64,000 bases of DNA from a virus (lineage: Duplodnaviria > Heunggongvirae > Uroviricota > Caudoviricetes): the IMG/VR virus record IMGVR_UViG_3300025853_000035, positions 1 through 64,000 of that record; one strand, given 5' to 3'. Below, piece by piece: positions 17,969-63,978 of the stretch. A program made the position numbers and the translations under genes. Positions within the stretch are counted from its first letter, which is position 1. The number at the start of each line of letters is the position of its first letter. The notes beneath the pieces are model-generated. The model saw nothing but the letters and a program-made list of their open reading frames with translations, was not told the DNA's origin and ran no database searches.

Positions 17969-18163
17969 ATGAGCAAGCGCCATTTCTATGGCGCGGCGAG
18001 CATCGCCTGCGTCATCACCGCCGGCTGGATGGCCGATCAGGGTCACTATTGCAGCACCATCTCGCTCATCATCGGCGGGATCATGTGCTTCTACGCTGCG
18101 ATCGTCTGCGATGCCGATCGCATGGAATCCATGCTGGACGAAATTCTGGATAGCACCCCATGA
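17969..18163 (+). CDS. small membrane protein (64 aa)
   Basis: Two hydrophobic helices. Confidence 0.35.
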   Translation: MSKRHFYGAASIACVITAGWMADQGHYCSTISLIIGGIMCFYAAIVCDADRMESMLDEILDSTP

Positions 18164-37934: not shown

Positions 37935-38160
37935 CCCCGTCGTCCGGGACGAATATGGACTCCGTGTGGTCCGCTTGTCCCCGCTCCGCACCCGGCGGCT
38001 CCTCCAGATGGCTGAGCACCCCGGTTTTCACCACAAGGCATTCTACAGCCAATACTGCCGCCTCATAGAAGAGGGCTGGGTAGGGTGGGTGATTGGGATG
38101 GCTTACCTCAAACCCGACGGCCAGCAGCATCTGGCCGCCATGCTACAGGAAGGAATCTAA
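37924..38160 (+). CDS. hypothetical protein (78 aa)
   Basis: ORF only. Confidence 0.35.
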   Translation: MSHSPVVRDEYGLRVVRLSPLRTRRLLQMAEHPGFHHKAFYSQYCRLIEEGWVGWVIGMAYLKPDGQQHLAAMLQEGI

Positions 38161-39762: not shown

Positions 39763-39792
39763 AACTCGATCTGCAAACAGGAAGATTTGTCC

Positions 39793-42417: not shown

Positions 42418-42753
42418 ATGATGGGGGACTATGCTCACGAGCCGCCGGACGATGAGACTGATCCGGTCTATCTCCTGCTCAAGGCAGGGTATAGGCCGGA
42501 GCAGTTCGAGGCCGCCTGCAAGCGCCTCCGTCCGATGGCACTCGACGATTATCTGCGTGAGCCGTTCTCGGACCTCGAAAAGATGATCTTGCGGTTGGCG
42601 GTGGAGAACACATCGTGGATCACCACCTACCGCACCCACGCCCCAACCCGTGACTCGCCCATGCTGATCCGTGAAGCATTGACCGCGTTGCGAACCCTCG
42701 CCGCCAAGCTCGAAGACTTCGGCATCGAAGTCAACTACATCCCCAACGATTGA
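42418..42753 (+). CDS. hypothetical protein (starts MMGDYAHEPP)
   Basis: Internal ATG of ORF 42133..42753. Confidence 0.4.
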   Translation: MMGDYAHEPPDDETDPVYLLLKAGYRPEQFEAACKRLRPMALDDYLREPFSDLEKMILRLAVENTSWITTYRTHAPTRDSPMLIREALTALRTLAAKLEDFGIEVNYIPND

Positions 42754-42764
42754 AAAGGAGCCAC

Positions 42765-43865: not shown

Positions 43866-43877
43866 TCAGGAGACCCC

Positions 43878-45344
43878 ATGAGCTATATCACGACCATCGG
43901 GGAACTGCTGAACCAGCCGATCCTCAACAGCGACACCTACAAGAACAGCCACTGGACGTTCGAGCACCCGCAGTTCACTTCGAGCTACGGCTACATCGAA
44001 GCCCGTAAGGGTGGCGAGTTCAGCGAGGTCATGTTCTTCGGCCTGCAATACCTGCTGCGCTATTACCTGACCCAGCGCGTCACCGACTCGGTGATCGCCC
44101 ACGCCCGCCGCTTCCTCCCGCTGCACGGCGTGCCGTTCAACGAAGAAATGTGGACGACCATCCGCGACAAGCACGATGGCCGGTGGCCGGTGCGGATCAA
44201 GGCGCTTCCAGAGGGCGTCCTCGTCCCGCAGGGCTGTGTCCTTGTCACGGTGGAATCGCTCGACGAGGAATGCGCCGGTGTCGCCGCGTTCGTCGAAACC
44301 CTGCTGCTTCGCGGCGTCTGGCTCCCCACCACGATCGCCACCCGGTCGATGCGCTGGTGGCGTCTGGTCGATCGCTACCTCACCCAGAGCGGCACGCCGG
44401 AGACGGCGGAGTTCAAGGTGGTGGACTTCTCGGCGCGCGGCGTCCGGTCGTCCGAGGACGCAGGCATCTCCGGCATGGCCCATCTCCTGAACTTTCAGGT
44501 GACCGACAATCTGCTTGGCATCCTGTTCGGCCAGAACGCCTACACGACCGAAACCATGCTGGGATATTCGATCCCGGCGACCGAGCACTCGGTCACCACG
44601 TCGTGGGGCAAGGAAAACGAGCAGGCGTTCTTCGAGCACATTCTCGAAGTCCATGGCCAGACCGTGAACCCGCTGGGCGGCCGGTCGCCGGTGTCGGTGG
44701 TGATCGACACCTACGATCAGGACAACGCCGTCCGCATGTGGCTGACGCCGGCCGAGAAGGGCGGTTGCGGCCTCCGCGAGAAGCTGGAAGCGTCGAACAT
44801 GTGCGTCGTGCTGCGGCCGGACTCGGGTGATCCGATCATCAACGTCGTCCACCTGCTCGACCTGATCGGAAGCCTGACGGGCTGGACGGTCAACGAGAAG
44901 GGCTTCCGCGTCCTCCCGGATTTCGTTCGCGTCATTCAGGGCGACGGCATCCACGAAGAATCGCTGCGCCGCATCCTCCAGCGTGTGGTCTACCACACTT
45001 GGTCGATCGACAACCTGACCTTCGGTTCGGGCGGTGGTCTGATGATGCACGACGTGGAGCGCGACACCCACCGCTTCGCCATGAAGACCTCGGAAGTGGT
45101 CATCGGCGGTATCACCAGCGCCGTCCGCAAGGAGGTCAAGACCGATCCGTCCAAGGCATCCAAGGCCGGGCGCTTCGCAGTGGTGATGGAGAACGACGTG
45201 CTGATCACCATCCCGGAAGACGAACTCAACGGTCGTCTCAACTATCTGCGGACGGTCTACGAGGACGGCGAACTGGTCGCCCCTGAGACGTTCGATCAGG
45301 TCCGGGAGCGCGCTCGCCAGTGGCGCGTCATCGGGCACGGCTAA
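43878..45344 (+). CDS. nadV: nicotinamide phosphoribosyltransferase (NadV/NAMPT)
   Basis: N-terminus LNQPILNSDTYKNSHW matches the NAMPT DT/SYKxxH signature. 488 aa. Confidence 0.8.
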   Translation: MSYITTIGELLNQPILNSDTYKNSHWTFEHPQFTSSYGYIEARKGGEFSEVMFFGLQYLLRYYLTQRVTDSVIAHARRFLPLHGVPFNEEMWTTIRDKHDGRWPVRIKALPEGVLVPQGCVLVTVESLDEECAGVAAFVETLLLRGVWLPTTIATRSMRWWRLVDRYLTQSGTPETAEFKVVDFSARGVRSSEDAGISGMAHLLNFQVTDNLLGILFGQNAYTTETMLGYSIPATEHSVTTSWGKENEQAFFEHILEVHGQTVNPLGGRSPVSVVIDTYDQDNAVRMWLTPAEKGGCGLREKLEASNMCVVLRPDSGDPIINVVHLLDLIGSLTGWTVNEKGFRVLPDFVRVIQGDGIHEESLRRILQRVVYHTWSIDNLTFGSGGGLMMHDVERDTHRFAMKTSEVVIGGITSAVRKEVKTDPSKASKAGRFAVVMENDVLITIPEDELNGRLNYLRTVYEDGELVAPETFDQVRERARQWRVIGHG

Positions 45345-46314: not shown

Positions 46315-46416
46315 GTGAGGGACGAGTCCGCTGCGCGGACTCGTGGAGAAAGTGCTTGACCAATTCGCCGGGCTGAACTATCTGAGTCGCAGCAACAGCG
46401 AATCAGGAGACAGACG

Positions 46417-51484: not shown

Positions 51485-51826
51485 TTAGTCTGGGGAAAGG
51501 GGGAGCGCCTTCTTGATGAACGTGCCGCCCATGGGACCCAGCTTGTAGGTTTTGATCACAGGACCGAAGGTGGGGAACATCTCGTGAAGGTAACGAAGCT
51601 CGACGAGATCGTTTAGCTCCTTCTCGAATTTCCCTGCCTTGAGTTTGATGAGGACTGCGATCTGGTCCACCGTGGGATAAGCCTTCTGGCCTGACATGCG
51701 GATATGCGCTTCCACTGCGATCAGCACCTTGAGATGACGGAGGGTGAGGTTCCGCTTTCCGAAGTGCATCAGGCTGCTCAGCGTCCGCAGCGCCTGATCA
51801 GCGCCCGAACCAGTTACGGATTTCAT
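51485..51826 (-). CDS. winged-helix (MarR-like) DNA-binding protein
   Basis: LTLRHLKVLIAVEAH...YPTVDQIAVLIKLKAGKFEKELNDLVELRYL resembles a MarR/wHTH fold. The start is uncertain. Confidence 0.4.
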   Translation of the reverse strand: MKSVTGSGADQALRTLSSLMHFGKRNLTLRHLKVLIAVEAHIRMSGQKAYPTVDQIAVLIKLKAGKFEKELNDLVELRYLHEMFPTFGPVIKTYKLGPMGGTFIKKALPLSPD

Positions 51827-52253
51827 CGGCGTCTTGCGCGGTGAAGCTGCCGAAGGCGTCTGCCATTTCTTCGACATGGTGGACGATCGTATTGTAGATC
51901 GAGGGGGCGCGTTCGCGGAGTTCTGCACGTTCGAGGCCAAGACTGACATCTCCCATCTTGTTGACGGGAATAATGACAGTGCCCCGCTCTTCCAGAATGT
52001 CCCATAGCCCGCCGAGACTGTTCAGGACGGCGTCCAGATCGGACTCGTTTCCCTCAACGAAAAACGACCCCGGTGTCATGGCAGGCTTCCGCTTGGTCGG
52101 CACGCCGTAGGCATTCGACGCGCCACGGATTATGGCCTGACCACCTTTACCAAATCCGAGCAGATTGTCACCAAAAACAAACGTAAAATTAGGCAGTTCG
52201 TCGCATAATCCGCGCGAATACCAGCCAGAGAAGCGTATAATCATTATATCCAC
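51798..52253 (-). CDS. conserved hypothetical protein (151 aa) immediately upstream of rtcB
   Basis: ORF with the Gly-rich motif FVFGDNLLGFGKGGQAIIRGASNAYGVPTK. Family not recognised. Confidence 0.45.
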   Translation of the reverse strand: MDIMIIRFSGWYSRGLCDELPNFTFVFGDNLLGFGKGGQAIIRGASNAYGVPTKRKPAMTPGSFFVEGNESDLDAVLNSLGGLWDILEERGTVIIPVNKMGDVSLGLERAELRERAPSIYNTIVHHVEEMADAFGSFTAQDADEIRNWFGR

Positions 52254-52322
52254 CTTGCGACCAGAGGGGTAAACGGATACCTGTCTAGGCGCGGGAAGCG
52301 TGAAACTCCCCGCGACGCTGGG

Positions 52323-53564
52323 TTAGCCCTTGACGTTCAAGACCTGCCGGAGCCGGTGCTTGATCTCGACCAGATCGTCCTGAGCGGCCATGACCGCACC
52401 GATCGGCTTGTAGGCGGCCGGACTCTCGTCCAGCACATCCGCATCAAGGCGGGCCTCGATCCCCTTCATGGCCTCGGCGTGCTGCTCCATGGTGATCAGC
52501 GCCTTGGCCTTGGTCCGGCTCATGGTCCGCCCGGCTCCGTGGCTGCACGAGTGGAACGAGTTCGGGTTGCCCTTGCCCTCCACGATGAAGCTGCCGGTGC
52601 CCATGGAGCCGGGGATGATCCCCAAGGTGCCCTCACGAGCCTGCACGGCACCCTTGCGGGTCACCCAGACATTCTCGCCGTAGTGCGACTCTCGGGTCAC
52701 ATAGTTGTGGTGGCAGTTGACCGCCATCTGCTCGGACATGAACGGGGGAAGGGTCTGACGCAGCACCCGGAGGACAGCCGCCATCATCTCCTTCCGGTTC
52801 TCCATGGCGAACTCCTGTGCCCACTCGACCGCCTCGCAGTAGTCGTCGTAGACCTCGGTGTGCTCTACCAGATAGGACAGGTCCTGATCCGGCAGATAGT
52901 CCGCGATGTGATAGCGGTGCATCTCCTCCTTCGCCTTCTCGATGAAGTAGGTGCCGATCGCGTTGCCGATACCGCGCGAGCCGGAGTGCAGCATCACCCA
53001 GACCCGGTTCTCCTCGTCGAGGCAAAGCTCGATGAAGTGGTTGCCGGTGCCGAGCGATCCCAGATGCTGGGTCGGAAGCCGACGCTGGGCGATCTTAGGG
53101 TGCTTGGCGATGATCGCGTCATAACCCTTCTCCAGATACTTCCAGCGCTCGACGACGGAGGCCGGCGGGTTGCCCCATGAGCCGGGATCACGCCCGCCAC
53201 GAATCTGATCCATGGTTCCGCGACCGTGAGGAACCGCCGCCTCGATCATCCCACGGATATGGGATAGGCTGTCCGGGAGATCGTCGGCGGTCAGGGAGAG
53301 GCGAAGCGCCATCATCCCACAGCCAATATCGACGCCGACCGCCGCCGGGACGATCGCGCCCTTGGTGGCGATCACGGTGCCTACGGTCGAACCCTTGCCG
53401 GCGTGAGCGTCAGGCATCACGGCGACGTGCTTGTGGACGAAAGGCATCCGCGCCATGTTCTCGATCTGCTGGATGGCCTCAGCCTCGAACGGATAGCCCT
53501 CCGGCTCCCACAGCTTGACCAGCTTCTTGCGGCCGAAACTGTCCTCAACCTGATGAACGCGCAT
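52323..53564 (-). CDS. rtcB: RtcB RNA ligase (3'-phosphate/2',3'-cyclic phosphate RNA-splicing ligase)
   Basis: 413 aa. MPDAHAGKGSTVGTV, HSGSRGIGN and NCHHNY motifs typical of RtcB. Confidence 0.85.
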   Translation of the reverse strand: MRVHQVEDSFGRKKLVKLWEPEGYPFEAEAIQQIENMARMPFVHKHVAVMPDAHAGKGSTVGTVIATKGAIVPAAVGVDIGCGMMALRLSLTADDLPDSLSHIRGMIEAAVPHGRGTMDQIRGGRDPGSWGNPPASVVERWKYLEKGYDAIIAKHPKIAQRRLPTQHLGSLGTGNHFIELCLDEENRVWVMLHSGSRGIGNAIGTYFIEKAKEEMHRYHIADYLPDQDLSYLVEHTEVYDDYCEAVEWAQEFAMENRKEMMAAVLRVLRQTLPPFMSEQMAVNCHHNYVTRESHYGENVWVTRKGAVQAREGTLGIIPGSMGTGSFIVEGKGNPNSFHSCSHGAGRTMSRTKAKALITMEQHAEAMKGIEARLDADVLDESPAAYKPIGAVMAAQDDLVEIKHRLRQVLNVKG

Positions 53565-53754
53565 GTCTTTGTCTCCTTCTTTTTTGGTGGGCCGACATAG
53601 CTTCCTCTACGTCGGCCCACATATTTCTGTGATGGCTCTACGCCAGTGCGATTCACTTCATGATGATCTCCTTGGTTTCGTCTACCGATTTCATCGTTCA
53701 GTGAGACTCGGTATAATGTAACGCCAAACTGTCGTCAACCGTGAAAGGGAAAAG

Positions 53755-56700
53755 TTAAAGGCCCCGGACCTTCATCGCCTTCACGTCCTCTTCGGACATG
53801 ATCTCGATGTCGAGTCCCTTGCTTTCCTTGAGGTTGGCGCGGACCTGCGAGAGCGGCGGGAAGATGAACACGCGGCTCTGGTTGGTCTGACCGTCAAGCT
53901 TCATCTTGACCTCCCGAGCGCCGAACCAGTCGCCCACCACCGTCGAGATGTCGTCGAAGCTGGTCTTGGCCTTGTCCGACGAGAACAAGAAGCGGACATA
54001 ATCCGACACCGCTGCTCGCAGGTCCTTGGCGTAGACCATCGTCTCGCGATCGTCGTTCAGTTCGATCGACGGGAAACGGTTCTCGTCGCTCGTCTCGTAA
54101 AGGCCGGACTTGACCAGTTCGAGCATGAACTTCTGCACGCCCGACAGCGTCTCGATCTGCTGCTTCTGGAGGTGGTCGGTCTTGGGCGGCGTGAACAGGC
54201 TGGCGAAGGTGCCCTTGACCGGCTTCCAGTGGAGCAGGTCGTGCAGCATGGCTTGCAGGCCACCCTTCTTGTCCATCTGCTCGCGCATCAGGCCGAAGAA
54301 CTCCAGATCGCCTTGGCGGGCATCCGAGCAGCGCAGCACGAAGAAGCGACGTTCGTCCTTGAGCGAGGCAGGGACCACCCAATCGTTGTTCGAGATCAGC
54401 GCGAGGCGCGTGTAGTTCTCGGACTGGATCGGGTCATAGCCCTTCTTTTCGATCAGCACCGACTTGTTGGTGATCATGTCCTTGAGGACACCTTCCGCCT
54501 GCGGGTCAGCGGCCCAGAAGGCTTCTTCGCAGACCATGAGCAGGGCGGTTTCAAGGTGGCCGTTGAACTGACCGACGATCTGCTTCCGCTGGCTCACGGT
54601 GATGCCGTGGAAGCCAAGCAGCTTGTTGATGAAGTCGAACAGGGTGGACTTACCCGTGCCCTTACCGCCGGTGATGACCAGCGTCGAACCCGGCTTGGCC
54701 TCCGGCTTCTGGAACAGCATCGCCAGCCACGTCATCAGCCACTCGAAATACTCGTCGTTCGACTCGCAGATGTTCTCGTAGATGTGACCACGCAGCATCG
54801 ACCAGTCACCGGCGACCGGTTCGTCCTTGTTGTCGAGGATGTTCTCCCACGTCGTCGGGACCGGCTCATACGGCCAGCCACGGAACAGGTTGTAGATGTC
54901 CTTGGCGACGCGGCGGCCGGGAGCGAACACCACCTGACGGTAGGTGCGGCGCTTGTCCCATTCCAGCCACAGGTCGAACCCGGCCAGCTTCTTCGACTGC
55001 TTGCCCTCGGCGATCCAGATCACGCGGTTCTTCTCGAACAGCTTCACGTCTCCCTGCGTTTCGAAGATCACGTCATCATCGGCGGAGCGCGGCTCCACCA
55101 GAATCTTGACGCCGCCGGACGTGCGGATCACTGCATAGCGCCGGTTGAACGCACGCAGCATGGTTTCCTCGGAATCGCCGAAGTCAAGATCGTCGTCCTC
55201 GAACTCCGGCTCCTCGGCCTCGTCGGTCGTAGGGGCGTCGGCGCGCGGCGTCGGCTTCTTCGGCTTGACCGGCTCTTCCTCCTCTTCCTCGTCCTCCTCC
55301 AGTTCGAACAGATAGTCCTTGTTGGTGAGGTCGGCCGGCGTGATCAATTCCTGCTCGATCAGTTCCTTGAGGTAGTCGAGGCGATCGCGGCCGGAGCAGG
55401 CGTTGTGGGTGCAGTTGAAGGTGAAGCCGCCTTCATAGCCGTCTTCCAGATTGTCGGAAGCGTTGACCACGAAGGTGCCGCCGCCGCCGAAGCTGGAGTG
55501 CTCGGCCTCGAACGGGCATTCGACGTGGACGCCGGCCTTGTTACCCCGGCCTTCGCGGATGAAGTCGCCACCGATCACATCCTCAAGCATCGCCTGCACA
55601 TCGAAGCGCTTGGCGTGCTTGATCGACCAGCCCTTGAGGTTGAAACCGCCGCTGGTGATGTAGCGGTTTGCGTCGTCCTCGTCGCCGTCATCCGCTCCAC
55701 CGGCCGCCGTGAAGGCGTTGCTGGCCACGGCGCTACGCTTGTTGTCGCGGCCCCGGCGCATCTTGACCCGGTCGAACTTGTCGAGGTCCAGCGGCTCGCC
55801 GCAGACCACCCACGAACCGAACGCCTTGTCCTTCGAGGCGTGGCGGGGCAGGTAGAAGAGGCGGGCAGGGTCTACGCACTTCTCATCGAAGAAGAGATCG
55901 AGCGCGGTGCAGAAGCCAGCATAGCGTTCCTTCCACTCGTCGATCGCATCCTTCTGCGAGCCGCCGCGCTTGGCGAACACGAAGGCTTCCTTGAGCGGAA
56001 ATACCGCACGGAACTTCGGCATCGGCTTATGCTGGACGAGGATGACGACGCCGTCTTCCGAGTGGTGGGCGTCATCCAGAATCGTCAGTTCCTCGACGAT
56101 CGCCGGCAGCACACCCTTCTTCTTGATCAGGTAGTCGCGGACCGCTTCCTCTTCGACCTCGGATGCCTCGGCCCACTTCATGAAGTGGTCGCGCTTGATG
56201 ACCGACGTGTTCTTGAGGTGGCTGTGGGTGGTGTAGATCACCGCCTCCAAACCATGCTGCTGGATCGTCCGCATCACGTCGTCGAGCGGCGCACCGGAGT
56301 CGAGATCGACGCCGAGGATGTGGTTGGCGATCATGGCGACGGCCTTGCGGGCACCGTTCGCGGACTGTCCTTGCAGGAAGCAGGGACCGTCCTTCTGGCC
56401 TTCCTTGTGATCCTGCAACATCGTCTCGAACTGGCCGAAGGTGCTGGACACCTCCTTCCACTTGCCCTGCGCTTCATCGCGGCGGCGGCCGGTCATGAGC
56501 GTGATGTTTGTCATGGTGCCCGGCGTCTGGATGTCGAGGTCCTGCGGGAGATACCAGTTCAGGCCGTCGAGATTGACCTTGCCCTTGCTATCGAGGAAGA
56601 CCGAGAGCGGGCACAGGTGCAGGCCGCTCTTCTGCCCGGAGACAGGATCGCCGTCGAGCATGTAGATCATACCGCCGGACACGTCGAACGAAGGCTGAGG

Positions 56701-56913
56701 CTCGACCACGTCGGGATTACCCGCGACGAAGATGCCGACAGCATCGCCGGTGTCAGTGACCAGATCGATCCACGGGTCGTTGGCATTTGACGCCCACGCG
56801 CCGACTTGCAGGAGATCATCGCTCGTGAACTCGTTCCCATCAGCATCGGAAACGGTGATCGCGCCGGTCGTGCGATCGAACAGATCGCAGATGAATTTGG
56901 TGTATAGAGCCAT
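53755..56913 (-). CDS. DNA primase/helicase (P4/D5-family NTPase C-terminal domain)
   Basis: 1052 aa. Walker A VITGGKGTGKSTL and Walker B FFVLRCSD in the C-terminal half, consistent with a phage/plasmid primase P4-type C-terminal domain. Central poly-acidic linker (EEDEEEEEEP). Confidence 0.65.
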   Translation of the reverse strand: MALYTKFICDLFDRTTGAITVSDADGNEFTSDDLLQVGAWASNANDPWIDLVTDTGDAVGIFVAGNPDVVEPQPSFDVSGGMIYMLDGDPVSGQKSGLHLCPLSVFLDSKGKVNLDGLNWYLPQDLDIQTPGTMTNITLMTGRRRDEAQGKWKEVSSTFGQFETMLQDHKEGQKDGPCFLQGQSANGARKAVAMIANHILGVDLDSGAPLDDVMRTIQQHGLEAVIYTTHSHLKNTSVIKRDHFMKWAEASEVEEEAVRDYLIKKKGVLPAIVEELTILDDAHHSEDGVVILVQHKPMPKFRAVFPLKEAFVFAKRGGSQKDAIDEWKERYAGFCTALDLFFDEKCVDPARLFYLPRHASKDKAFGSWVVCGEPLDLDKFDRVKMRRGRDNKRSAVASNAFTAAGGADDGDEDDANRYITSGGFNLKGWSIKHAKRFDVQAMLEDVIGGDFIREGRGNKAGVHVECPFEAEHSSFGGGGTFVVNASDNLEDGYEGGFTFNCTHNACSGRDRLDYLKELIEQELITPADLTNKDYLFELEEDEEEEEEPVKPKKPTPRADAPTTDEAEEPEFEDDDLDFGDSEETMLRAFNRRYAVIRTSGGVKILVEPRSADDDVIFETQGDVKLFEKNRVIWIAEGKQSKKLAGFDLWLEWDKRRTYRQVVFAPGRRVAKDIYNLFRGWPYEPVPTTWENILDNKDEPVAGDWSMLRGHIYENICESNDEYFEWLMTWLAMLFQKPEAKPGSTLVITGGKGTGKSTLFDFINKLLGFHGITVSQRKQIVGQFNGHLETALLMVCEEAFWAADPQAEGVLKDMITNKSVLIEKKGYDPIQSENYTRLALISNNDWVVPASLKDERRFFVLRCSDARQGDLEFFGLMREQMDKKGGLQAMLHDLLHWKPVKGTFASLFTPPKTDHLQKQQIETLSGVQKFMLELVKSGLYETSDENRFPSIELNDDRETMVYAKDLRAAVSDYVRFLFSSDKAKTSFDDISTVVGDWFGAREVKMKLDGQTNQSRVFIFPPLSQVRANLKESKGLDIEIMSEEDVKAMKVRGL

Positions 56914-56920
56914 GAGGACC

Positions 56921-57367
56921 TTATTTGGTGAGGTTGAGATCGTAGGTGGTCACCGGGCCACCTGTGTTCTTGTCGTGCAGCGAGGCTGCTTCGACGGCCT
57001 CTTCGGCGGTAGCCCCTGCGGCCAGCGCACCGAGGGCCAGCATCGTCCCGGAGCCGATTGCGGTGTAATCGGCATAGATCGGGACGAGGTGTCCATCATC
57101 GAATTCATAGGCGCGGCCGGAAACACGATCGACGAGCAGCGCGGAGAATTCGGAGGTGTTGTTGAGAAGGTCGGCCGGAACTTCGTCGCTATGACAACCG
57201 TCCTTGACCCACTTTTCGAGAATGCGCCGGTAACAGACAGCACCAGCCAGCGCGACGAGGTAATTGCCGCATTCGGCGATCTTGTCCCGGTGGCCATTTG
57301 TGTAGGTGTTATAGGCGATTAGGGTATCGGCAGCGAGGACGCCGTCGCGATAGCAGATGGTAGTGAT
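56921..57367 (-). CDS. HslV/proteasome-like Ntn-hydrolase protease (Thr1 directly after an unusual ATC initiator)
   Basis: TTICYRDGVLAADTL...AIGSGTMLALGALAAG aligns with HslV (TTIVSVRRNG...AIGSGGPYAQAAARAL). The listed 189-aa ORF contains a family promoter (TTGACA-N17-TATCTC) and SD GGAGACGGACC inside its N-terminal extension. The codon right after the SD is ATC, followed by ThrThr. Confidence 0.55.
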   Translation of the reverse strand: MTTICYRDGVLAADTLIAYNTYTNGHRDKIAECGNYLVALAGAVCYRRILEKWVKDGCHSDEVPADLLNNTSEFSALLVDRVSGRAYEFDDGHLVPIYADYTAIGSGTMLALGALAAGATAEEAVEAASLHDKNTGGPVTTYDLNLTK

Positions 57368-57394
57368 GGTCCGTCTCCGCCGGGTGAATGGGTG

Positions 57395-57430
57395 CGGAGA
57401 GATAATCGAAACTGTCGTTGGTGTCAAGTT
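57395..57430 (-). promoter_or_regulatory. promoter-family copy driving the HslV-like gene
   Basis: Reverse complement: AACTTGACACCAACGACAGTTTCGATTATCTC ... GGCGGAGACGGACCATC. Confidence 0.5.
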
Positions 57431-57491
57431 AGAATTGCGGTGAGTAATAACTCGGACGCCAACGGACGATGGCGGAAAGGGTGAGGACAAA

Positions 57492-57530
57492 GAAAAGGCC
57501 CGGCTCTCTTGCGAGGACCGGGCCTACCAC
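57492..57530 (-). terminator. rho-independent terminator for a minus-strand transcript
   Basis: Minus strand reads GGCCCGGTCCTCGCAAGAGAGCCGGGCCTTTTCTTTG. Confidence 0.6.
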
Positions 57531-57699
57531 CGGATTTCACCGTGTTTGGAGACAGACAATCTCCGGCGGATAACTCCTGATAGGGGGTTGCACCCTACCG
57601 GTCAAGGCACCTTTCGCTGCTGCCCGAACGAGGATAGCGGTCTATCGACTTCCGCCCTCGCCAGCACGTCTACCACTTACCCGAGGTTTATCACCGTCA

Positions 57700-58183
57700 T
57701 GCCGGCTTCTAGCCTCGGACGAGGGAGTCGAACCCTCATTTGCCCAGCTTGCCCTACCTTGGGCCTTCTCTTCCTTCATCCGTCGCGAACGGTAGGTTCG
57801 GACAGCAGCGAAAAGTGTCTTGCTCCCAGATAGGATGATTCTTCCTATCTGTCAAACACAGTTCAGAAGGAGGCCCAACACAGTCGCGCGGGGGAGTGCG
57901 ACTAGCGGTCAGGGGTGGGGTCGTGCTGGACCCCCATCTGAACTGTGTGGCCCGTTCTGTTGCTCGGTGGGCCAGCCCGCACCTTAGGAGTTGATCCCCA
58001 AGGAATTCACCGGACACAGTTTAGGCCGAAGCCCTCACATTCGTCCGGCTGAGATCACGCCGCGAGGCGCATCTCGACAACTTCGTTGTCGTTGACAGTT
58101 ACGTCGGTGATCCGCATGACGGGCGGTGTCTAAACGGGTCGCGTCCTTCTCTCAGCCTTGCCGCTCGATCCTAATTCACCCCC
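57700..58183 (-). ncRNA. ssrA: tmRNA-like (ssrA-like) gene: tRNA-like 5' end, tag reading frame, downstream T-arm-like element (3' end unresolved)
   Basis: Minus strand from 58183 reads GGGGGUGAAUUAGGAUCGAGCGG, which fits the tmRNA 5' consensus GGGGnUGAuUcuGGAUuCGAcGGG. About 95 nt downstream is an in-frame tag (V)NDNEVVEMRLAA followed by a TGA stop (plus-strand coordinates about 58046-58085), ending in the degron-like LAA. A GAGGGTTCGACTCCCTC T-arm motif sits at 57721-57737. No clean 3' acceptor plus CCA was found. Confidence 0.45.
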
Positions 58184-58997
58184 ATCAACTGCACTGACAA
58201 CCAACACCTCCATCCGCTAAGACTTTGGCGCTAGGGTCGCTAAACCCTAACCGGCGTTCCGACTGTCAGCATTACGCTTGGGCGCGCTGTCAGTGCAGAT
58301 GGTGGAGGTGGCGGGCTCTGCCCCCGCGTCACGGCTCAACCTCGATCGTCCGAATAACGACCATATTCTTTGTGGCCCAGCGCCCCGCGCTGAGAAGCGC
58401 GGTCGATAACGGCACGATGGGCCAACCTCGTTGCGATCAGATCGGTGAGGGATTCGAACCCTCGGCTGGACGGTGCGCCATAATTCTGACTACGGAGCCG
58501 TTGCCTCCGAATTCCATCCAGTCTTGCATCGATCACCCTTAAACCACTCGGGCAACCGACCTGATCAAACCTCCCCTGCACACTCGGAATAGCGGGCAGA
58601 CATTGCGGCGCTGAAAGCGCGGGAGGAAATTCTTGCCATCACTGGCAATGTGAAACCTCAAAGCTCAGCAGGCTCACTACTTCCTGCCTATAGCCGCGTC
58701 AGTGTAACGCCACACCTCTCCACGAGGAGCAAAAGGTCTCGCATTGCGAGTGATACCCGGCGGAGTAACAACAAGGAGACAAATCCGCTCCGCCGGGCAT
58801 CCGATCTGGAACTTCCCCGCATGGGCTGCTCCGTCTCGATGAACACATCTCTAAGCGATTCGTTACAGAACGTCAAGCGAAAATGTCGCTGCATTCTTTT
58901 GGCGCATCACTTTTTAGAGAGAGGTGACAAAAATCTGATTTCCTGCCAAAGAGCGGGGCGCGGCCGAGGAGGTCGAGCAATCAAAGTTAGGTGCTAA

Positions 58998-59855
58998 ATG
59001 GCTCAAGCCACCAAGAAAATCGCAGAGAAGACAGCTTGGCTGAGAGAGGCCATAGAGCGTGGCAAGAAGGAATGTTTCAGCATCGTCGCTGACATCACGC
59101 CCGAGGCGGCGGCACTCCTTCTGGACAACAACCCCGACAACCGCAGCATCAACGCGACGATCGTGCGCCAGCTAGTGGCCGACATGAAGAACAAGCGGTG
59201 GCAGTTCAATGGTGAGTCGATCATCGTCGCAGACACCGGCGAACTCAACGACGGGCAGCACCGTCTCTCGGCCGCCGTCGAGGCGGGTTTCACCTTCAAG
59301 AGCGTCCTCGTCTTCGGCGTCCCGCGCGTCAGCCGCATCACGCTCGACATGGGCCGCATCCGCAGCGTCGGGGACTATCTGCAAATCTCCTCGATCAAGA
59401 ACTCCATGACGGTGGCGGCCATCACGCGGCTGGTCATGTCTTGGGAGCGCGCCAACGGGCGCAACTTCGAAGCCGGCAAATGGCTGACGATCCCAGAGCA
59501 GATCACGCGCGCTATGACCGATGAGGCGATCCATCACGCGGCAAATTGGGCGGTCAGCCGTAACCCATACGCCCATAGACTCGCCCCCGGCTCGGCCTTT
59601 GGCTTCTGCTATGTCGTCCTGTCGCGAATCAACCCCAGCGACGCGGAGACCTATTTGGAGCAGGTCGTGATGGGAGAGGGCCTGCACCGCAAGGACGCGG
59701 CGTTCGCTGTGCGTGATGCTCTGGTGGTAAGCGAGACCCGGATCAGGGTAGAGCGGATCGCGATGATCCTGCGGGGCTGGTCACACTTCCGTAACCAGAC
59801 TGAGCCTAGCAAGCAGGCTATCAACGGACGCTTCCCGCTTCCTGAACTCAACTAG
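58998..59855 (+). CDS. ParB/Srx-like nuclease-domain protein
   Basis: IIVADTGELNDGQHRLSAAVEAG matches the ParB N-terminal box (GxxRxxA). Confidence 0.6.
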   Translation: MAQATKKIAEKTAWLREAIERGKKECFSIVADITPEAAALLLDNNPDNRSINATIVRQLVADMKNKRWQFNGESIIVADTGELNDGQHRLSAAVEAGFTFKSVLVFGVPRVSRITLDMGRIRSVGDYLQISSIKNSMTVAAITRLVMSWERANGRNFEAGKWLTIPEQITRAMTDEAIHHAANWAVSRNPYAHRLAPGSAFGFCYVVLSRINPSDAETYLEQVVMGEGLHRKDAAFAVRDALVVSETRIRVERIAMILRGWSHFRNQTEPSKQAINGRFPLPELN

Positions 59856-59866
59856 GAGGAGACCCT

Positions 59867-60274
59867 ATGGCCAGCCAAACGATGATGAACGGGTTGAAGG
59901 GCATCGCAGCCTTCGTGGCGATTGCCGGCGGTGGTGTGATGCTCTTGAAGCTCCAATATGATTCCTCACCGGCTGGGCAGGCGGTCGCGGCGAAGCTGGA
60001 GCAGCAGGAAAACGATCGGCCCCTCATCAACGTCGCGGAGACGTTGGTGAAGGGCCGATTGCGTGATCCAGATAGCGCGACATTCACAGGCACGAAGGTC
60101 GTCCGCAGCAGCGGGAAGGAAGCCGTCTGTGGTTTCGTGAACGCTCGCAACGGCGCGGGCGGTATGGCCGGCGACAGATGGTTCATCGTCGCGGACAGCG
60201 AAGCCTATTTCATGGACGACGGCGCTGACGCCGCTCAGGTGATCGAAGCGACCTGCGGAACTACTTCGACTTGA
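59867..60274 (+). CDS. membrane-anchored protein (135 aa)
   Basis: N-terminal TM/signal segment GLKGIAAFVAIAGGGVMLL. Confidence 0.4.
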   Translation: MASQTMMNGLKGIAAFVAIAGGGVMLLKLQYDSSPAGQAVAAKLEQQENDRPLINVAETLVKGRLRDPDSATFTGTKVVRSSGKEAVCGFVNARNGAGGMAGDRWFIVADSEAYFMDDGADAAQVIEATCGTTST

Positions 60275-60545
60275 TCTTCACGACCACCGTCTGATCGAGC
60301 AGACGCCCACCTTCGGTGGTGACGCGGAAGAGGATCGGACATGATTCTCCTTCGCTACCACCTGACAGCCAGACGGTCAGGCGGTTGTCTGTGAAGCCAT
60401 AGCTGTCGATGTGGACGGTGCCCTCGACCACGGACACCTCCATGATGGACGCGATGCGATCGCCGGGTTCCATGCGGCTGGAGTAATCCACCACATAGTC
60501 AAGAACCTCGTCCGGGTCCTTCGGGGTCTTCCACTTCATGCTCAT
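60261..60545 (-). CDS. hypothetical protein (94 aa), downstream of the tail fibre
   Basis: ORF only; possible tail-fibre assembly or accessory role judged from position alone. Confidence 0.4.
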   Translation of the reverse strand: MSMKWKTPKDPDEVLDYVVDYSSRMEPGDRIASIMEVSVVEGTVHIDSYGFTDNRLTVWLSGGSEGESCPILFRVTTEGGRLLDQTVVVKIKSK

Positions 60546-62167
60546 AGATATGCAATCCGGTCTTCGGCTGGGAGGAGGACTTCTCGGTCCTCGGATGGGA
60601 GAAGGACCTCACGCTCTTCGGCAGTGAGGGTAACGAGACGATCTTCGGCAGGGAGAGCCGCCACCCGATCGGCCGGCGTCGCGATGTTGCTGCTGAACGA
60701 TAGCGACACCATCCGACCAGTCATCACGCCCTCGGAGGCGATCTGGCTGGAGTAAACCGTGGCCCCGGCCCACCCCGACATGATAGACGCGCCTTGCGAC
60801 CCCATGAGGCCAACATTGATGGCGACGCCCGTCATCCGGCCGGTGCCGATCGCGCCGATCTGAGCGAAACGGCTTACCGCAAACTCCAACTCCTTGAATG
60901 CGCCGATTGACGACCCGCTACCTGAGAAGGTGGCCGGGACGGTGACATCCGTAGGAGTGAATGACCCGGTCGATGAACCCTCGGCCGCCATGCGGACAGA
61001 GACGTAACCGGTGAAGGATGCGGTGCTGGTTCCCTCGGCAAGGAAGCTACCTGCAATTGTGCGATGACCGACGAACCTGAACGAGTCGCCGTCGAATTTC
61101 GGCGACGACTCCATTTTGGCGCTGACGATCCGCTGAGCGGTAAGTGCCCCACTGGCTGAGCCGGCGGCCGAGAACTCTGCCTCGCCCGGACCGAACGCCC
61201 GTGCAAGCATCGCATCACCAGCCACGCCCGACGAGGACAAATCGCCCGACACATTAGCGCGCCCCACGAAGGCGGCTACCGAGGTGCCTGCGCTCGCCAG
61301 ATCACCGACCGAGGCGGAGAAACCGATGCTCTGAAAGTCAGGCTCAGGTGCCTGCGCCAGCGAATACATCTGGGCAGTGATGAGAGCGATCGCGTCGAAG
61401 CGAGCGTTTGACTCGCCGGCCGCGTTACGCATCTCACCGACACGGTAGGTCGCCGATTGCATGTAGGCCGTAGGCGTGGTGCCTGCCGCCGCCATGGTCC
61501 CCGACTTGGTCCAACCACCCACGAACTCAGCGGTGGAGGTGTTGGTGCTTTCCGGCGTGCCTGACACGATCGCGCCATCAACGGTGTAGGCGCTGAAATT
61601 GATGGTGCGTCCATCACCACGAATGAAGAGGCCGACCTTACCGGGCGCGGTCAAGGGGTCCGTGGCGTCCTCATACTCCCAGAGCATCGCTCCCGCTTTG
61701 AACAGCGTGAACTTGTTGCCACTGACCTGCAACTCGAAGTCGTGGAACGTGCTGGTGGGAGCCAACGGTTGCAGCCCCAACGTCTGGTTCAGAAGCGTGC
61801 GGGAGCCGTTGACCGTCTTATAGAGAGCCACATAGGACGTGGCGATCGTGATAAAATACCCGGACGTTCCGTTGATACGGAACGCCACGCCGGGAAAACC
61901 GGTCGAACCGAAGTTGCCGGTCGTGAAGGCGATATTATAGTCGGCTTCCGGTGCGTCATCGGATAGATACGCGATAACGCCCGGCGACGTGGTCGATGTG
62001 GTGCGTGCGCCTTGGTTGGCGATGACCGACATAGTGCCGGACGTGCCACCCAAGCTGGAACTGGTGCCAGACACAGAAACCCACGACCCGCCCAATGGCG
62101 CGACGCGGCCATTGAGCGCAACCGTGGTGGTTTCAGTTAGTGCGTCTTGGGCAAAGATTGTTGCCAC
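60542..62167 (-). CDS. tail fibre / receptor-binding-like protein
   Basis: 541 aa, Gly/Ser/Thr/Ala-rich beta-rich composition. C-terminal tandem LPxEDREVLL repeats. Confidence 0.5.
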   Translation of the reverse strand: MATIFAQDALTETTTVALNGRVAPLGGSWVSVSGTSSSLGGTSGTMSVIANQGARTTSTTSPGVIAYLSDDAPEADYNIAFTTGNFGSTGFPGVAFRINGTSGYFITIATSYVALYKTVNGSRTLLNQTLGLQPLAPTSTFHDFELQVSGNKFTLFKAGAMLWEYEDATDPLTAPGKVGLFIRGDGRTINFSAYTVDGAIVSGTPESTNTSTAEFVGGWTKSGTMAAAGTTPTAYMQSATYRVGEMRNAAGESNARFDAIALITAQMYSLAQAPEPDFQSIGFSASVGDLASAGTSVAAFVGRANVSGDLSSSGVAGDAMLARAFGPGEAEFSAAGSASGALTAQRIVSAKMESSPKFDGDSFRFVGHRTIAGSFLAEGTSTASFTGYVSVRMAAEGSSTGSFTPTDVTVPATFSGSGSSIGAFKELEFAVSRFAQIGAIGTGRMTGVAINVGLMGSQGASIMSGWAGATVYSSQIASEGVMTGRMVSLSFSSNIATPADRVAALPAEDRLVTLTAEEREVLLPSEDREVLLPAEDRIAYL

Positions 62168-62193
62168 GGATTACCTCCCGTTAGAGAGGCGCA

Positions 62194-62622
62194 TCAGTCC
62201 TCGGTGATGGTGCCCGTGGTGGACAGGCGCGGCGTGATGCCGTTACCGCAGACGATGTTCGGGGTGATGGTGCCCGAGTAGAGGAGGATGCCCGCGCCGT
62301 TCTGGGACAGGCCGATACCGAAGTGCGAGGCCGTGCCCGTGCCGCCGCTGCCGGTGGGGAAGTCGATGTTCTGAGCCGGGGAGACGGCATTGCCAGTCAC
62401 CTGCCAGCCGGCCGCAGTGCGGGCGACGGCGACGCGGGCATAGTTGGTGTAGGCGATCTCGTTGGTCGCCTGCGTGCCTGCTTCACCCGGATCGCTGGTG
62501 TGCAGCGAAACATAGAGGGTGGTCAGGGGAGCGACTTCTGCGTCGTCCGCGAGGTTGGCGATACCGGTGCCGTTGAAGAGGAGCGCCAGAATGGCGTTCT
62601 CAAGAAAATTGCTCTTGGACAT
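62194..62622 (-). CDS. tail fibre-associated protein (142 aa)
   Basis: Gly/Thr-rich. Directly upstream of the tail-fibre gene on the same strand. Confidence 0.4.
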   Translation of the reverse strand: MSKSNFLENAILALLFNGTGIANLADDAEVAPLTTLYVSLHTSDPGEAGTQATNEIAYTNYARVAVARTAAGWQVTGNAVSPAQNIDFPTGSGGTGTASHFGIGLSQNGAGILLYSGTITPNIVCGNGITPRLSTTGTITED

Positions 62623-62757
62623 GGGTTCTCAAATCTGGCTGGGGAGGGGCGGCACCTAAGCGGATGCCATCTTGTTAACCATAGCAGGTTATGCCCCAAA
62701 TGTCAATTCATAATGACCGTCAGTAAGACGTGACACTGGTTTTCGCTGGGGATGATC

Positions 62758-62833
62758 TGGCACGGGTGGTGGGACTCGAACCCACGTTGCACGGTTTTGG
62801 AGACCGGCCGAATAGCCGCTATCTTACACCCAT
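62758..62833 (-). tRNA. tRNA-Trp (CCA)
   Basis: Manual cloverleaf: acceptor ATGGGTG/CACCCGT, T-arm GTGGGTTCGAGTCCCAC, anticodon loop CTCCAAA, encoded CCA. Confidence 0.6.
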
Positions 62834-62842
62834 GTGAAACGC

Positions 62843-62926
62843 TGGAGCCGCCCACAGGGATCGAACCTGCGTCCTTTCGGAACCTCCGGGTTGCAACCGG
62901 GTGCCTTACCTCTCGGCCAAGGCGGC
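62843..62926 (-). tRNA. class II (Ser-like body) tRNA with apparent GCA anticodon
   Basis: Acceptor GCCGCCT/GGGCGGC, Ser-like D-arm GGCCGAGAGGTAAGGC, 14-nt variable arm, T-arm GCAGGTTCGATCCCTGT, CCA. The anticodon region CCGGTTGCAACCGG is palindromic; the most plausible loop TTGCAAC gives GCA. Confidence 0.5.
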
Positions 62927-62933
62927 TCATATC

Positions 62934-63020
62934 TGGAGGAGAGTGAGGGGATCGAACCCTCCCAGCCTTTCGGCTACCTTCGCTTAGCAAGCGAGTGCGT
63001 TACCACTCCGCCAACTCTCC
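62934..63020 (-). tRNA. tRNA-Ser (GCT)
   Basis: Acceptor GGAGAGT/ACTCTCC, D-arm GGCGGAGTGGTAACGC, loop TTGCTAA, long variable arm, T-arm GGGTTCGATCCCC, CCA. Confidence 0.65.
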
Positions 63021-63027
63021 ATTAAAC

Positions 63028-63100
63028 TGGATGCCCGGCCACGGATCGAACGTGGGTTTCATGCTTCAAAGGCACGGGTCTTACCATTAGACGAACGGGC
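63028..63100 (-). tRNA. tRNA-Gln (TTG)
   Basis: Anticodon stem CGTGC/GCATG, loop CTTTGAA, T-arm CCACGTTCGATCCGTGG, CCA. Confidence 0.55.
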
Positions 63101-63102
63101 AT

Positions 63103-63180
63103 TGGTTCTCCGCCGAGGACTCGAACCTCTATCTTTCCGCATTCAGAGTGCGGCGGCCGGACCTGCCAGCTAAGCGGAGA
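63103..63180 (-). tRNA. tRNA-Gln (CTG)
   Basis: Acceptor TCTCCGC/GCGGAGA, anticodon stem CCGCA/TGCGG, loop CTCTGAA, T-loop GGTTCGAGTCC, CCA. Confidence 0.55.
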
Positions 63181-63198
63181 ACAGGATCAGGACTTAGG

Positions 63199-63272
63199 GG
63201 TGACCTGTGGGTTTCGAACCCACCATCTCCGGCACCACAAGCCGGCGCATCAACCTACTCTGCCTAGGCCAC
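63199..63272 (-). tRNA. tRNA-His (GTG), no encoded G-1
   Basis: Acceptor GTGGCCT/AGGTCAC, anticodon stem CCGGC/GCCGG, loop TTGTGGT, T-arm GTGGGTTCGAAACCCAC. Position -1 is U and no CCA is encoded. Confidence 0.6.
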
Positions 63273-63369
63273 ACCTAAATCCTGAACTGCATCCCATCGT
63301 CCTCATGTGACCAGATATGACCGATAGGGCGGTCATATTGCCCATATATGGACGATAGAACGGTCAAAC

Positions 63370-63446
63370 TGGAGCCGACGGTGGGATTTCAACCCACGAT
63401 CTGCCGTTTACGAGACGGCTGCTTTGAGGCTCTAAGCTACGTCGGC
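63370..63446 (-). tRNA. tRNA-Thr (CGT)
   Basis: Acceptor GCCGACG/CGTCGGC, anticodon stem GCCGT/ACGGC, loop CTCGTAA, T-arm GTGGGTTGAAATCCCAC, CCA. Confidence 0.65.
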
Positions 63447-63453
63447 ATAACTC

Positions 63454-63540
63454 TGGTGCGGTTCCCCGGACTTGAACCGGGACGGCCTTTCGGCCACTGA
63501 GGTTTGAATCCAGCGCGTCTACCAATTCCGCCAGAACCGC
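63454..63540 (-). tRNA. tRNA-Leu (CAA)
   Basis: Leu-type D-arm GGCGGAATTGGTAGACGC, loop TTCAAAC, long variable arm, T-arm CCCGGTTCAAGTCCGGG, CCA. Confidence 0.65.
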
Positions 63541-63548
63541 ATTGATCT

Positions 63549-63634
63549 TGGTGCCCTAGGCAGGACTTGAACCTGCACGACCTTTCGGCCCACGGCCTCT
63601 CATGCCGCTATGTCTACCGTTCCATCACAAGGGC
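63549..63634 (-). tRNA. tRNA-Leu (GAG)
   Basis: Leu-type D-arm GATGGAACGGTAGAC, anticodon stem GCGGC/GCCGT, loop ATGAGAG, long variable arm, T-arm GCAGGTTCAAGTCCTGC, CCA. Confidence 0.6.
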
Positions 63635-63646
63635 GTGATTGTAATC

Positions 63647-63730
63647 TGGTGCGCCTCCCCGGACTTGAACCGGGACGAGTTTCCCCCACGGCTTCTGAGG
63701 CCGCTACGTCTGCCATTCCGCCAGAGGCGC
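63647..63730 (-). tRNA. tRNA-Leu (CAG)
   Basis: Acceptor GCGCCTC/GAGGCGC, D-arm GGCGGAATGGCAGACG, loop CTCAGAA, T-arm CCCGGTTCAAGTCCGGG, CCA. Confidence 0.65.
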
Positions 63731-63736
63731 GTTAAC

Positions 63737-63823
63737 TGGTGGGTAGGTGAGGTATCGATCCTCCCCCTCTTGCGAGGCGCGGTGTTACAGACCGCCTGCC
63801 GGAGCCACCGGCTTTACCTACCC
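63737..63823 (-). tRNA. tRNA-Tyr (GTA), class II
   Basis: Acceptor GGGTAGG/CCTACCC, anticodon stem GCGGT/ACCGC, loop CTGTAAC, long variable arm, unusual T-loop ATCGATA, CCA. Confidence 0.55.
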
Positions 63824-63891
63824 GTGAAAATTGAAAACAAAAAAGCGCCAAGAGCCAGTGGCTCATGACGCTGTGAAAAATCGCGATGGGG

Positions 63892-63978
63892 TGGAGGAGG
63901 GTAGAGGAATCGAACCCCTAGGTCTCTCAACACTAGCCCGGTTTTCGAGACCGGTTTGCACCCTGTGCGCTACCCTCC
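63892..63978 (-). tRNA. tRNA-Ser (CGA), class II
   Basis: Acceptor GGAGGGT/ACCCTCC, anticodon stem CCGGT/ACCGG, loop CTCGAAA, long variable arm, T-arm AGGGGTTCGATTCCTCT, CCA. Confidence 0.55.

Follow-up and report, generated by a model that had tools for sequence, protein, structure and literature searches.

A conserved neighbourhood of putative translation-support and RNA-repair genes in a Lacusarx-like siphovirus, with two tRNA-shaped RNAs flanking its tmRNA

The stretch of DNA analysed here, referred to throughout as the window, comprises positions 1 to 64,000 of the IMG/VR virus record IMGVR_UViG_3300025853_000035 (Caudoviricetes). Towards one end of it, between positions 51,798 and 63,978, a first-pass annotation made from the sequence had predicted a gene for the RNA ligase RtcB, an array of tRNA genes, a gene resembling transfer-messenger RNA (tmRNA) and a gene for an HslV-like protease, all on the minus strand, and each of these is found here. 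The features of the region, read from the end of the window inwards, are as follows, where ORF denotes an open reading frame and TL-1 and TL-2 are two tRNA-like RNAs beside the tmRNA.

62758..63978, minus strand: tRNA array of 11 confident tRNAs and a marginal tRNA-Tyr, cut by the window end (ARAGORN; Rfam tRNA)
63737..63823, minus strand: tRNA-Tyr(GUA), the twelfth gene of the array, reported by ARAGORN only at a relaxed threshold (-ps90)
60261-62622, minus strand: fibre-like genes (Gp77 fibre-tail adaptor family, a 541-residue protein, Gp80 fibre family) between the tmRNA and the tRNA array
58998-59855 and 59867-60274, plus strand: two ORFs that break the minus-strand RNA region, the first of them phrog_5931
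58435..58566, minus strand: TL-1, second tRNA-like RNA, immediately 5' of the tmRNA (fold; Lacusarx copy)
57946..58400, minus strand: two-piece (permuted) tmRNA of alphaproteobacterial type (Rfam RF01849 and RF04321), tag VNDNEVVEMRLAA
57829-57855, 57579-57605 and 57401-57427, minus strand: promoter-like boxes, each just upstream of an RNA gene or of the peptidase gene
57609..57816, minus strand: TL-2, tRNA-like non-coding RNA of about 200 nucleotides (fold, homologues, covariation)
57497..57575, minus strand: small hairpin RNA with an intrinsic-terminator-like stem and U-tract, preceded by the box at 57579..57605
56921..57367, minus strand: proteasome-beta/HslV-like N-terminal nucleophile (Ntn) peptidase, mature part 56921..57364, about 147 residues (phrog_1040, fold, motif)
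53755..56913, minus strand: primase/helicase of 1052 residues with a DUF5906 P-loop domain (Pfam DUF5906; PHROG DNA primase families; 'DNA primase' in Erythrobacter phage XM05)
52323..53564, minus strand: RtcB RNA ligase of 413 residues (Pfam RtcB, phrog_1075, PDB alignment)
51798..52253, minus strand: DUF7831 protein of 151 residues (Pfam DUF7831)

By its sequence the window derives from a Lacusarx-like (CbK-like) siphovirus of sphingomonad-type alphaproteobacteria; 12.6 kb of it align with phage XM05 at approximately 80% DNA identity, with further matches to Erythrobacter phage vB_EliS-L02 (hereafter L02) and Sphingobium phage Lacusarx, and its best DNA match to any of these three phages is at most about 80%. 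Annotation combined with an Rfam scan shows that XM05, L02 and Lacusarx have the tRNA array, the tmRNA, the large primase-like gene and rtcB in identical order, while in metagenomic relatives reached via the peptidase the tRNAs, tmRNA, peptidase, DUF5906 primase and RtcB are joined, after 0-5 small genes, by DUF7831. Synteny in related phages, raised as a check by the first-pass annotation, therefore holds, in that XM05, L02, Lacusarx and the metagenomic relatives repeat the succession tRNA array - tmRNA - (peptidase) - primase - RtcB - DUF7831. The description of these genes as a single 12-kb module is borne out for the genes but not for their contiguity, as the run is interrupted by the 1052-residue primase/helicase, by the fibre-like Gp77/Gp80 families and by the two plus-strand ORFs.

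Lacusarx (PMC5648845), L02 and XM05 resemble the window in the order and strand of the tRNA array (with Trp, Cys, Ser, Gln... first), the two-piece tmRNA, the large primase-like gene, rtcB and the DUF7831 gene. In Lacusarx the resemblance extends to the fibre-like genes between tmRNA and tRNAs and to the TL-1 RNA, but this phage differs from the window in possessing tadA and in having neither the HslV-like peptidase nor the TL-2 RNA. XM05 and L02 do have the peptidase, but in these phages the tRNA array directly adjoins the tmRNA; the fibre-like genes, absent from this position in both, are also present in a further relative, L008. According to the paper on vB_EliS-L02 (PMC9127768), that phage has 29 tRNAs, a 'proteasome' ORF and an RNA-splicing ligase assigned to tRNA repair, and the view of RtcB as a tRNA-repair enzyme in these phages is likewise a published one (PMC5648845, PMC9127768). 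The tRNA/tmRNA/RtcB region is thus already on record for Lacusarx-like phages and is ordinary for the family, and the sole new item is the unannotated pair of tRNA-shaped RNAs flanking the tmRNA. Taken together, the sequence comparisons support the view that these genes form a conserved translation-support and RNA-repair neighbourhood.

With default settings ARAGORN identified 11 tRNAs (Trp-CCA, Cys-GCA, Ser-GCU, Gln-UUG, Gln-CUG, His-GUG, Thr-CGU, Leu-CAA, Leu-GAG, Leu-CAG and Ser-CGA), 10 of which reached the gathering score of Rfam RF00005 in at least one scan. Gln-CUG scored below it, at 24.5 bits, and Ser-CGA matched tRNA-Sec, under the gathering score of that family. The tRNA-Tyr(GUA) has a non-canonical T-loop (UAUCGAU) and an encoded CCA, and gave no Rfam match at E ≤ 1. 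The array of 12 tRNAs previously described can therefore be maintained for 11 confident genes, with the twelfth marginal, and the accompanying list of identities (Trp, Ser, Gln, His, Thr, Leu and Tyr) had left out Cys. Codon usage was counted over 29 window genes (8814 codons), of which the 12 tRNAs read 24.5%. It can be seen that they read the two most used codons of both Leu (CTG, a fraction of 0.44 within the amino acid, and CTC, 0.36) and Ser (TCG, 0.37, and AGC, 0.27), together with both Gln codons and the His, Cys, Tyr and Trp codons. The codon match of the window tRNAs is good, though not perfect.

The RtcB ligase announced by the first-pass annotation is intact and full length; residues 33-413 align with positions 1-426 of the Pfam model PF01139 (E 1e-122), and the motifs DIGCG, GTGNHF, HSGSRGIG, HHN and SCSHGAGR are kept in comparison with RtcB of T. 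thermophilus and other PDB RtcB chains. These motifs contribute the metal-binding Asp, Cys and His residues and the His nucleophile that is guanylylated. RtcB joins 2',3'-cyclic phosphate (or 3'-phosphate) ends to 5'-OH ends of RNA, such as are left in tRNA and rRNA by metal-independent ribonucleases.

The tRNAs had been read as selected decoys or substitutes, which would make this region a dedicated counter-defence module, its tRNAs replacing or shielding the isoacceptors cleaved in the host and its RtcB repairing whatever is still cut. RtcB does act on exactly the ends that anticodon nucleases are established to leave, and there are precedents, in that T4 Pnkp and Rnl1 repair PrrC-cleaved tRNA-Lys and phage tRNAs overcome tRNA cleavage by PARIS or by retrons. 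The window resembles these cases in combining a phage RNA ligase with phage tRNAs able to restore a damaged tRNA pool; it differs from them in that its ligase is RtcB, for which no end-healing kinase/phosphatase is needed, and in that its tRNA set is near-complete rather than limited to one or a few isoacceptors. RlaP, like phage tRNAs and RNA ligases, is connected in reviews with host RNase effectors (PMC7824862), and XM05, the closest complete relative, has a nucleotidyltransferase gene of the RlaP (RNA-ligase-associated Pol-beta) family at 117515-118495 (17515-18495 of locus L091), but tblastn found no RlaP homologue in the window. The tRNAs themselves also argue against selection, since the 12 genes are the window-truncated end of a larger set: the same run (Trp, Cys, Ser, Gln, Gln, His, Thr, Leu...) extends in relatives to 22-29 tRNAs that cover most amino acids (PMC5648845, PMC9127768), and it is because the window end cuts the array that a general complement looked like a selected set. 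No anticodon-specific pattern is visible among the window tRNAs, and the codon counts indicate that they simply track frequent phage codons, including the most used codons for Leu, Ser, Gln, His and Cys, an outcome that the first-pass annotation had itself set beforehand against its proposal. We know of no cognate host nuclease for this phage. A module dedicated to counter-defence is accordingly judged unlikely. Counter-defence by tRNA supply and RtcB repair remains plausible in a generic form, and reviews argue that such a set would also blunt tRNA-cleaving defences (PMC7824862); any such protection would probably be a generic by-product rather than a design around particular isoacceptors.

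The tmRNA-like gene proved to be a complete two-piece tmRNA that exceeds the threshold of both relevant Rfam families, scoring 68.8 bits with alpha_tmRNA (RF01849, gathering score 50) and 79.6 bits with tmRNA_permuted (RF04321, gathering score 47), although ARAGORN does not detect it in the window. The acceptor piece ends ...CACCUCC-A-CCA and the coding piece begins GGGGGUG, and together these therefore supply the G3.U70 pair of alanine identity. From the alignment and the sequence, the tag frame reads VNDNEVVEMRLAA followed by the stop codon UGA, and it ends in LAA, the canonical degron for ClpXP-type proteases. Homologous tmRNAs were found with Rfam in XM05, L02 and Lacusarx, and the tags that ARAGORN reports for relatives are ANDNTVVEMRLAA and ANDNTPVVVARDEVRLAA. 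When the genome collection was scanned for the exact T-arm/acceptor sequence of the phage tmRNA, to look for a host origin of this gene, the sequence was found on one contig only (L092; JAZOTD010000014.1, 127 kb), which is binned as a Clostridia metagenome-assembled genome and is probably a mis-binned Lacusarx-like phage genome.

The mature peptidase, which matches phrog_1040 ('peptidase HslV family') at 2e-33, has the N-terminal Thr, Asp, Lys and Gly-Ser-Gly of an HslV-like Ntn-hydrolase together with the proteasome-beta fold, in agreement with the identity first given to it. Among 19 sequences T43, T44, D55 and K70 are invariant and S147 nearly so; among 36 sequences the Asp, the Lys and both Gly of GSG are invariant, and T1, T2 and the Ser nearly invariant. 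An AlphaFold2 model (mean predicted local distance difference test score 96.9) was matched by Foldseek with probability 1.0 to 5ovs (BPH), 6z46, 1m4y (HslV) and 20S beta subunits. The likeness to HslV, BPH and 20S beta subunits thus extends to the fold (TM score approximately 0.75) and the catalytic residues. Unlike these proteins, the phage peptidase has about 147 rather than 171-220 residues, has no adjacent HslU and has ATC rather than ATG before Thr1; it also matches no Pfam family at E ≤ 0.01, PF00227 (Proteasome) included, a domain that is carried by a few of its distant homologues. No HslU-type unfoldase gene adjoins that of the peptidase, and a single AAA+ protein was seen in the window, a BCS1-like one encoded 20 kb away (36714-37934).

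Homologues of the peptidase start MTTIAYR..., and relatives have ATG-ACT-ACC where the window has ATC-ACT-ACC (Ile-Thr-Thr), so that the codon before the catalytic Thr (57365-57367, minus strand) is ATC. A near-identical metagenomic protein shares the Ile before Thr1, and another homologue has a short propeptide ending Ile-Thr-Thr. Thr1 may thus be exposed either through initiation at AUC or through autoprocessing of a propeptide.

The peptidase gene is preceded by the promoter-like box TTGACA-N17-TATCTC and then by GGAGA, 6 nucleotides after which comes the ATC. In its shorter form, TTGAC-N18-TATC, the box occurs four times in the window against 0.26 occurrences expected, with three copies among the RNA and peptidase genes and the fourth on the plus strand at 46356-46382, and similar boxes stand at equivalent places in relatives. 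The primase gene starts 8 nucleotides past the peptidase stop codon, and for this reason the two genes, together with rtcB, appear to be transcribed as a unit. Just before the box of this putative operon lies the hairpin at 57497-57575, a nested CCGCCGG...GGAGA..UCUCC...CCGGUGG with a terminator-like stem and a U-tract behind it. This element is kept in all relatives examined (XM05, L02, Lacusarx, L004, L006 and L008), and was missed by a simple terminator scan, its loop being too long. Boxes and terminator are proposed from the recurrence of the motif and from conservation in relatives.

The tmRNA and the peptidase had also been suggested to constitute a private pathway of ribosome rescue and proteolysis, in which products stalled on the ribosome and tagged by the phage tmRNA would be degraded by the adjacent peptidase. 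Only about 450 nucleotides separate the tmRNA from the peptidase gene downstream of it, and the two genes are likewise adjacent in XM05, L02 and several metagenomic relatives. To place the arrangement in the wider peptidase family, which has at least 427 relatives in IMG/VR, approximately 50 loci were scanned for tRNAs and tmRNA. Among nine close relatives (at least 55% identical) tRNA arrays are present in eight and tmRNA matches in all five examined, but the other 41 loci, from more distant phages, have 0-3 tRNAs and no tmRNA. Conversely, Lacusarx has the tmRNA and no peptidase gene. RtcB is near the peptidase in nine of 79 loci, eight of which fall within the clade, leaving a single locus outside it. 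Further points against such a pathway are that the tag ends in the ...LAA degron of ClpXP-type proteases, that no HslU-like unfoldase adjoins the peptidase, the sole AAA+ protein found being the distant BCS1-like one, and that a separate promoter-like box and a terminator-like hairpin lie between the tmRNA and the peptidase gene. The peptidase appears to be cotranscribed with the primase, and no observation links it to the tmRNA; we regard a private proteolysis pathway as very improbable.

The same approach was informative for the DUF7831 protein, for which a position upstream of rtcB and a role as an RtcB partner had been proposed. The protein does carry the motif quoted for it, but its gene is transcribed downstream of rtcB. 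Across 80 viral loci, giant-virus contigs included, RtcB lies within 6 kb of DUF7831 in 11, all of them from close relatives (at least 50% identical), and in none of the other 69, and in one relative five genes intervene between the two. The proposed partnership was dropped on these counts. No firm fold could be assigned to DUF7831, a macrodomain being among the candidates weighed. Peptidase and DUF7831 are therefore found near RtcB, tRNAs or tmRNA almost solely inside this clade, and the gene that separates peptidase from RtcB, the primase/helicase, is a replication gene.

The 455-nucleotide non-coding stretch from the tmRNA to the peptidase gene folds far better than shuffled sequences (z -7.9), and has TL-2 (z -5.5 for its own fold) as its core. 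TL-2 is predicted to be closed by a helix of about 20 bp, within which a small hairpin is followed by the canonical T arm GAGGGUUCGACUCCCUC, then by a closed acceptor-like stem and UA, and lastly by a GG-containing D-like loop AGUGGUAGA and a second hairpin. Five further distinct homologues were found in the same slot of XM05 and metagenomic relatives. In their alignment 92.9% of cells are paired, against 40-52% with slid partners, and double-sided changes are seen in 22 of 50 pairs, against 5-10 with slid partners; none of 500 shuffles reached the observed values. A covariance model built from the six sequences found one extra copy, at 79.8 bits, inside the tRNA array of an L02-like contig, and this copy is without the acceptor-like hairpin. 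A tRNA dimer, a false positive flagged by Chen 2014, was rejected as an explanation for TL-2, as TL-2 lacks anticodon arms and shows covariation in its 20-bp closing helix; a genuine false positive of this kind was seen at 2189-2263 of the relative L006.

The bacterial Y RNA YrlA, a tRNA mimic, has the element order stem, V, T arm, closed acceptor-like stem, UA, D arm, stem (Chen 2014; Wang 2018 preprint). Comparison of its sequence and consensus fold with Chen 2014 shows that TL-2 follows this order, with the D stem degenerate in the window copy. The Rfam YrlA model gave no match to the window TL-2 even at E ≤ 10, and no other Rfam family matched it. In the same slot of the relative L008 (9440-9577), however, the YrlA model recovers two tandem modules, at 38.1 and 23.4 bits, each with a T arm, a 6-7 bp hairpin, UA and a canonical D arm and with no anticodon arm. 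Both scores lie below the YrlA gathering score of 69, as do the 32.5 bits that the model gives to the genuine YrlA beside Ro in mycobacteriophage Bxz1, and on this basis the slot after the tmRNA does hold YrlA-like modules in this phage group. The window TL-2 is a more divergent version; its membership of YrlA is not established. Near the 5' end, the GNCGAAN0-1G motif is fitted by XM05 GCCGAAAG and by L012/L013 GUCGAAAG, while the window GAUGAAGG, L004 and L011 have U for C. The motif GNCGAANG occurs in some of the TL-2 homologues.

TL-1 is predicted to fold as a cloverleaf-like four-way junction (z -3.2) closed by a helix of 12-13 bp, in which the T arm is canonical, the D arm class-II-like and the central arm long. 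A copy that is 89% identical is present in Lacusarx (L002, 10387-10516), and a pattern scan of IMG/VR found it nowhere else. It has no Rfam match and is not recognisable as a tRNA. ARAGORN, only when allowed introns (-i), reads it as a tRNA-Cys with a 49-nucleotide intron, an assignment that would have suited a 'splicing ligase' but was rejected for its poor anticodon stem, the 13-nucleotide linker after the D arm and the long closing helix. In the tRNA region of L006 there is also a GOLLD-like large RNA with an embedded tRNA (1041-1525; 137 bits, gathering score 150, E 3e-36); the window stops before the equivalent position.

A further reading is that of a Ro60-independent, Y-RNA-like repair unit, in which the tRNA-shaped RNAs would either assist the phage RtcB as cofactors or scaffolds or divert host tRNA-binding nucleases as decoys. 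Such a unit would be analogous to the bacterial rsr-yrlA-rtcBA and Band-7/b7a-tRNA/RtcB operons. The rsr-yrlA(-yrlB)-rtcBA loci of Salmonella and Mycobacterium and the Ro60/YrlA pair of Bxz1 share with TL-2 a tRNA mimic that has a T arm, a closed acceptor-like stem, a UA linker, a GG D-loop and a long terminal helix, with RtcB in the genome. Bxz1, like the window phage, carries many tRNAs, and we take it to have a tmRNA as well. Besides the element order of YrlA and the covariation behind the fold, the GNCGAANG motif of some homologues is in keeping with this proposal, as is the best L008 score (38.1 bits), which is higher than that of the genuine Bxz1 YrlA. tRNA-like RNAs have been proposed to assist RtcB, and in some bacteria Band-7 proteins and a tRNA-like RNA adjoin RtcB (bioRxiv 10.1101/312249, which also cites the latter); the window encodes an SPFH/Band-7 protein as follows.

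20353-21144, plus strand: SPFH/Band-7 protein, 31 kb from rtcB

The window differs from the rsr-yrlA-rtcBA and Bxz1 loci, however, in having no Ro60 gene, in the degenerate D stem, extra hairpin and missing Rfam YrlA match of TL-2, and in that TL-2 adjoins the tmRNA rather than rtcB. No Ro60/TROVE gene was found in the window (Pfam on large ORFs, and tblastn with Bxz1 Ro on the window and loci) or in the XM05 genome (annotation, and Pfam on large unknown proteins), and none of the 357 matches of Bxz1 Ro by tblastn among all phage records comes from an Erythrobacter or Sphingobium phage. RtcB is 4 kb from TL-2 with the primase between them, no tRNA was detected beside the distant Band-7 gene, and the structure is drawn from only seven related sequences. 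Alternatively, the elements could be tRNAs that have decayed, or signals by which RNase P/Z process the tmRNA transcript. A Y-RNA-like repair unit is judged unlikely to quite unlikely, and we hold it quite improbable that TL-2, and possibly TL-1, are 'orphan' Y-RNA-like tRNA mimics of Lacusarx-like phages that work without Ro60, are transcribed together with the tmRNA or beside it, and might serve RtcB as cofactors or act as decoys for host tRNA-targeting nucleases.

The identities of the genes, their intact catalytic motifs, the conserved gene order and the match to codon usage are all observed, and on these grounds we consider it likely that the region serves a Lacusarx-like siphovirus for translation support and RNA maintenance, its two halves being an RNA-gene cluster and a protein operon. 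The large tRNA array, 12 genes of which lie in the window and the rest beyond its end, would supply isoacceptors for the preferred codons of the phage. The two-piece tmRNA would use the alanyl-tRNA synthetase and SmpB of the host (SmpB being assumed to be host-supplied), would add a ...RLAA tag recognisable to host ClpXP-type proteases, and would thereby free ribosomes stalled on broken mRNA during infection. The promoter-like TTGACA-N17-TATCTC box may drive an operon of peptidase, primase/helicase, RtcB and DUF7831, and RtcB would reseal 2',3'-cyclic-phosphate/5'-OH RNA ends. We infer that the set keeps translation running while host RNA is degraded or attacked. Several observations weigh against this account. 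Thr-CGU reads the second most used Thr codon and not the first, and Leu-CAA reads a rare codon (7%). The strict sigma-70 scan did not call the promoter-like boxes, and the start of the peptidase, and hence its expression, is uncertain because no canonical start codon directly precedes Thr1. Finally, supply and counter-defence can be told apart only against the tRNA pool and defence systems of the host.

Outside this region the following genes of the window may be mentioned.

36714-37934, plus strand: BCS1-like AAA+ ATPase
38085-38768, plus strand: Rv2179c-like 3'-5' exoribonuclease
39787-41148, plus strand: tyrosine integrase with an arm-binding domain
42750-45344, plus strand: Nudix-domain protein next to a nicotinamide phosphoribosyltransferase (NAMPT)

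The likely counterpart of the Nudix protein in XM05, judged by gene order, is annotated as a cytidyltransferase. Phage NAD+ salvage pathways are reported to counter NAD-depleting defences, and the Nudix/NAMPT pair resembles them. Of the two plus-strand ORFs that interrupt the RNA region, the phrog_5931 protein (58998-59855) carries an NDGQHR motif, which we take to be typical of ParB/DndB-like nuclease domains, and the corresponding Lacusarx gene is labelled HNH endonuclease in RefSeq.

As a module, the region adds one more member to a published phage group and changes little, and it is a case in which truncation by the window made a general tRNA complement look selected. What it does bring to light are structured tRNA-like RNAs beside the tmRNA, absent from annotations, in a phage that has RtcB and in which no Ro60 was found. 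Their role is a question shared with bacterial YrlA and with the predicted Band-7-associated tRNA. If the TL RNAs are functional, these phages would offer a simple system for tRNA-mimicking Y-like RNAs in RNA repair, and the orphan mimics, if truly of this kind, would represent a new Ro-independent branch of the Y RNA/RtcB RNA-repair theme.

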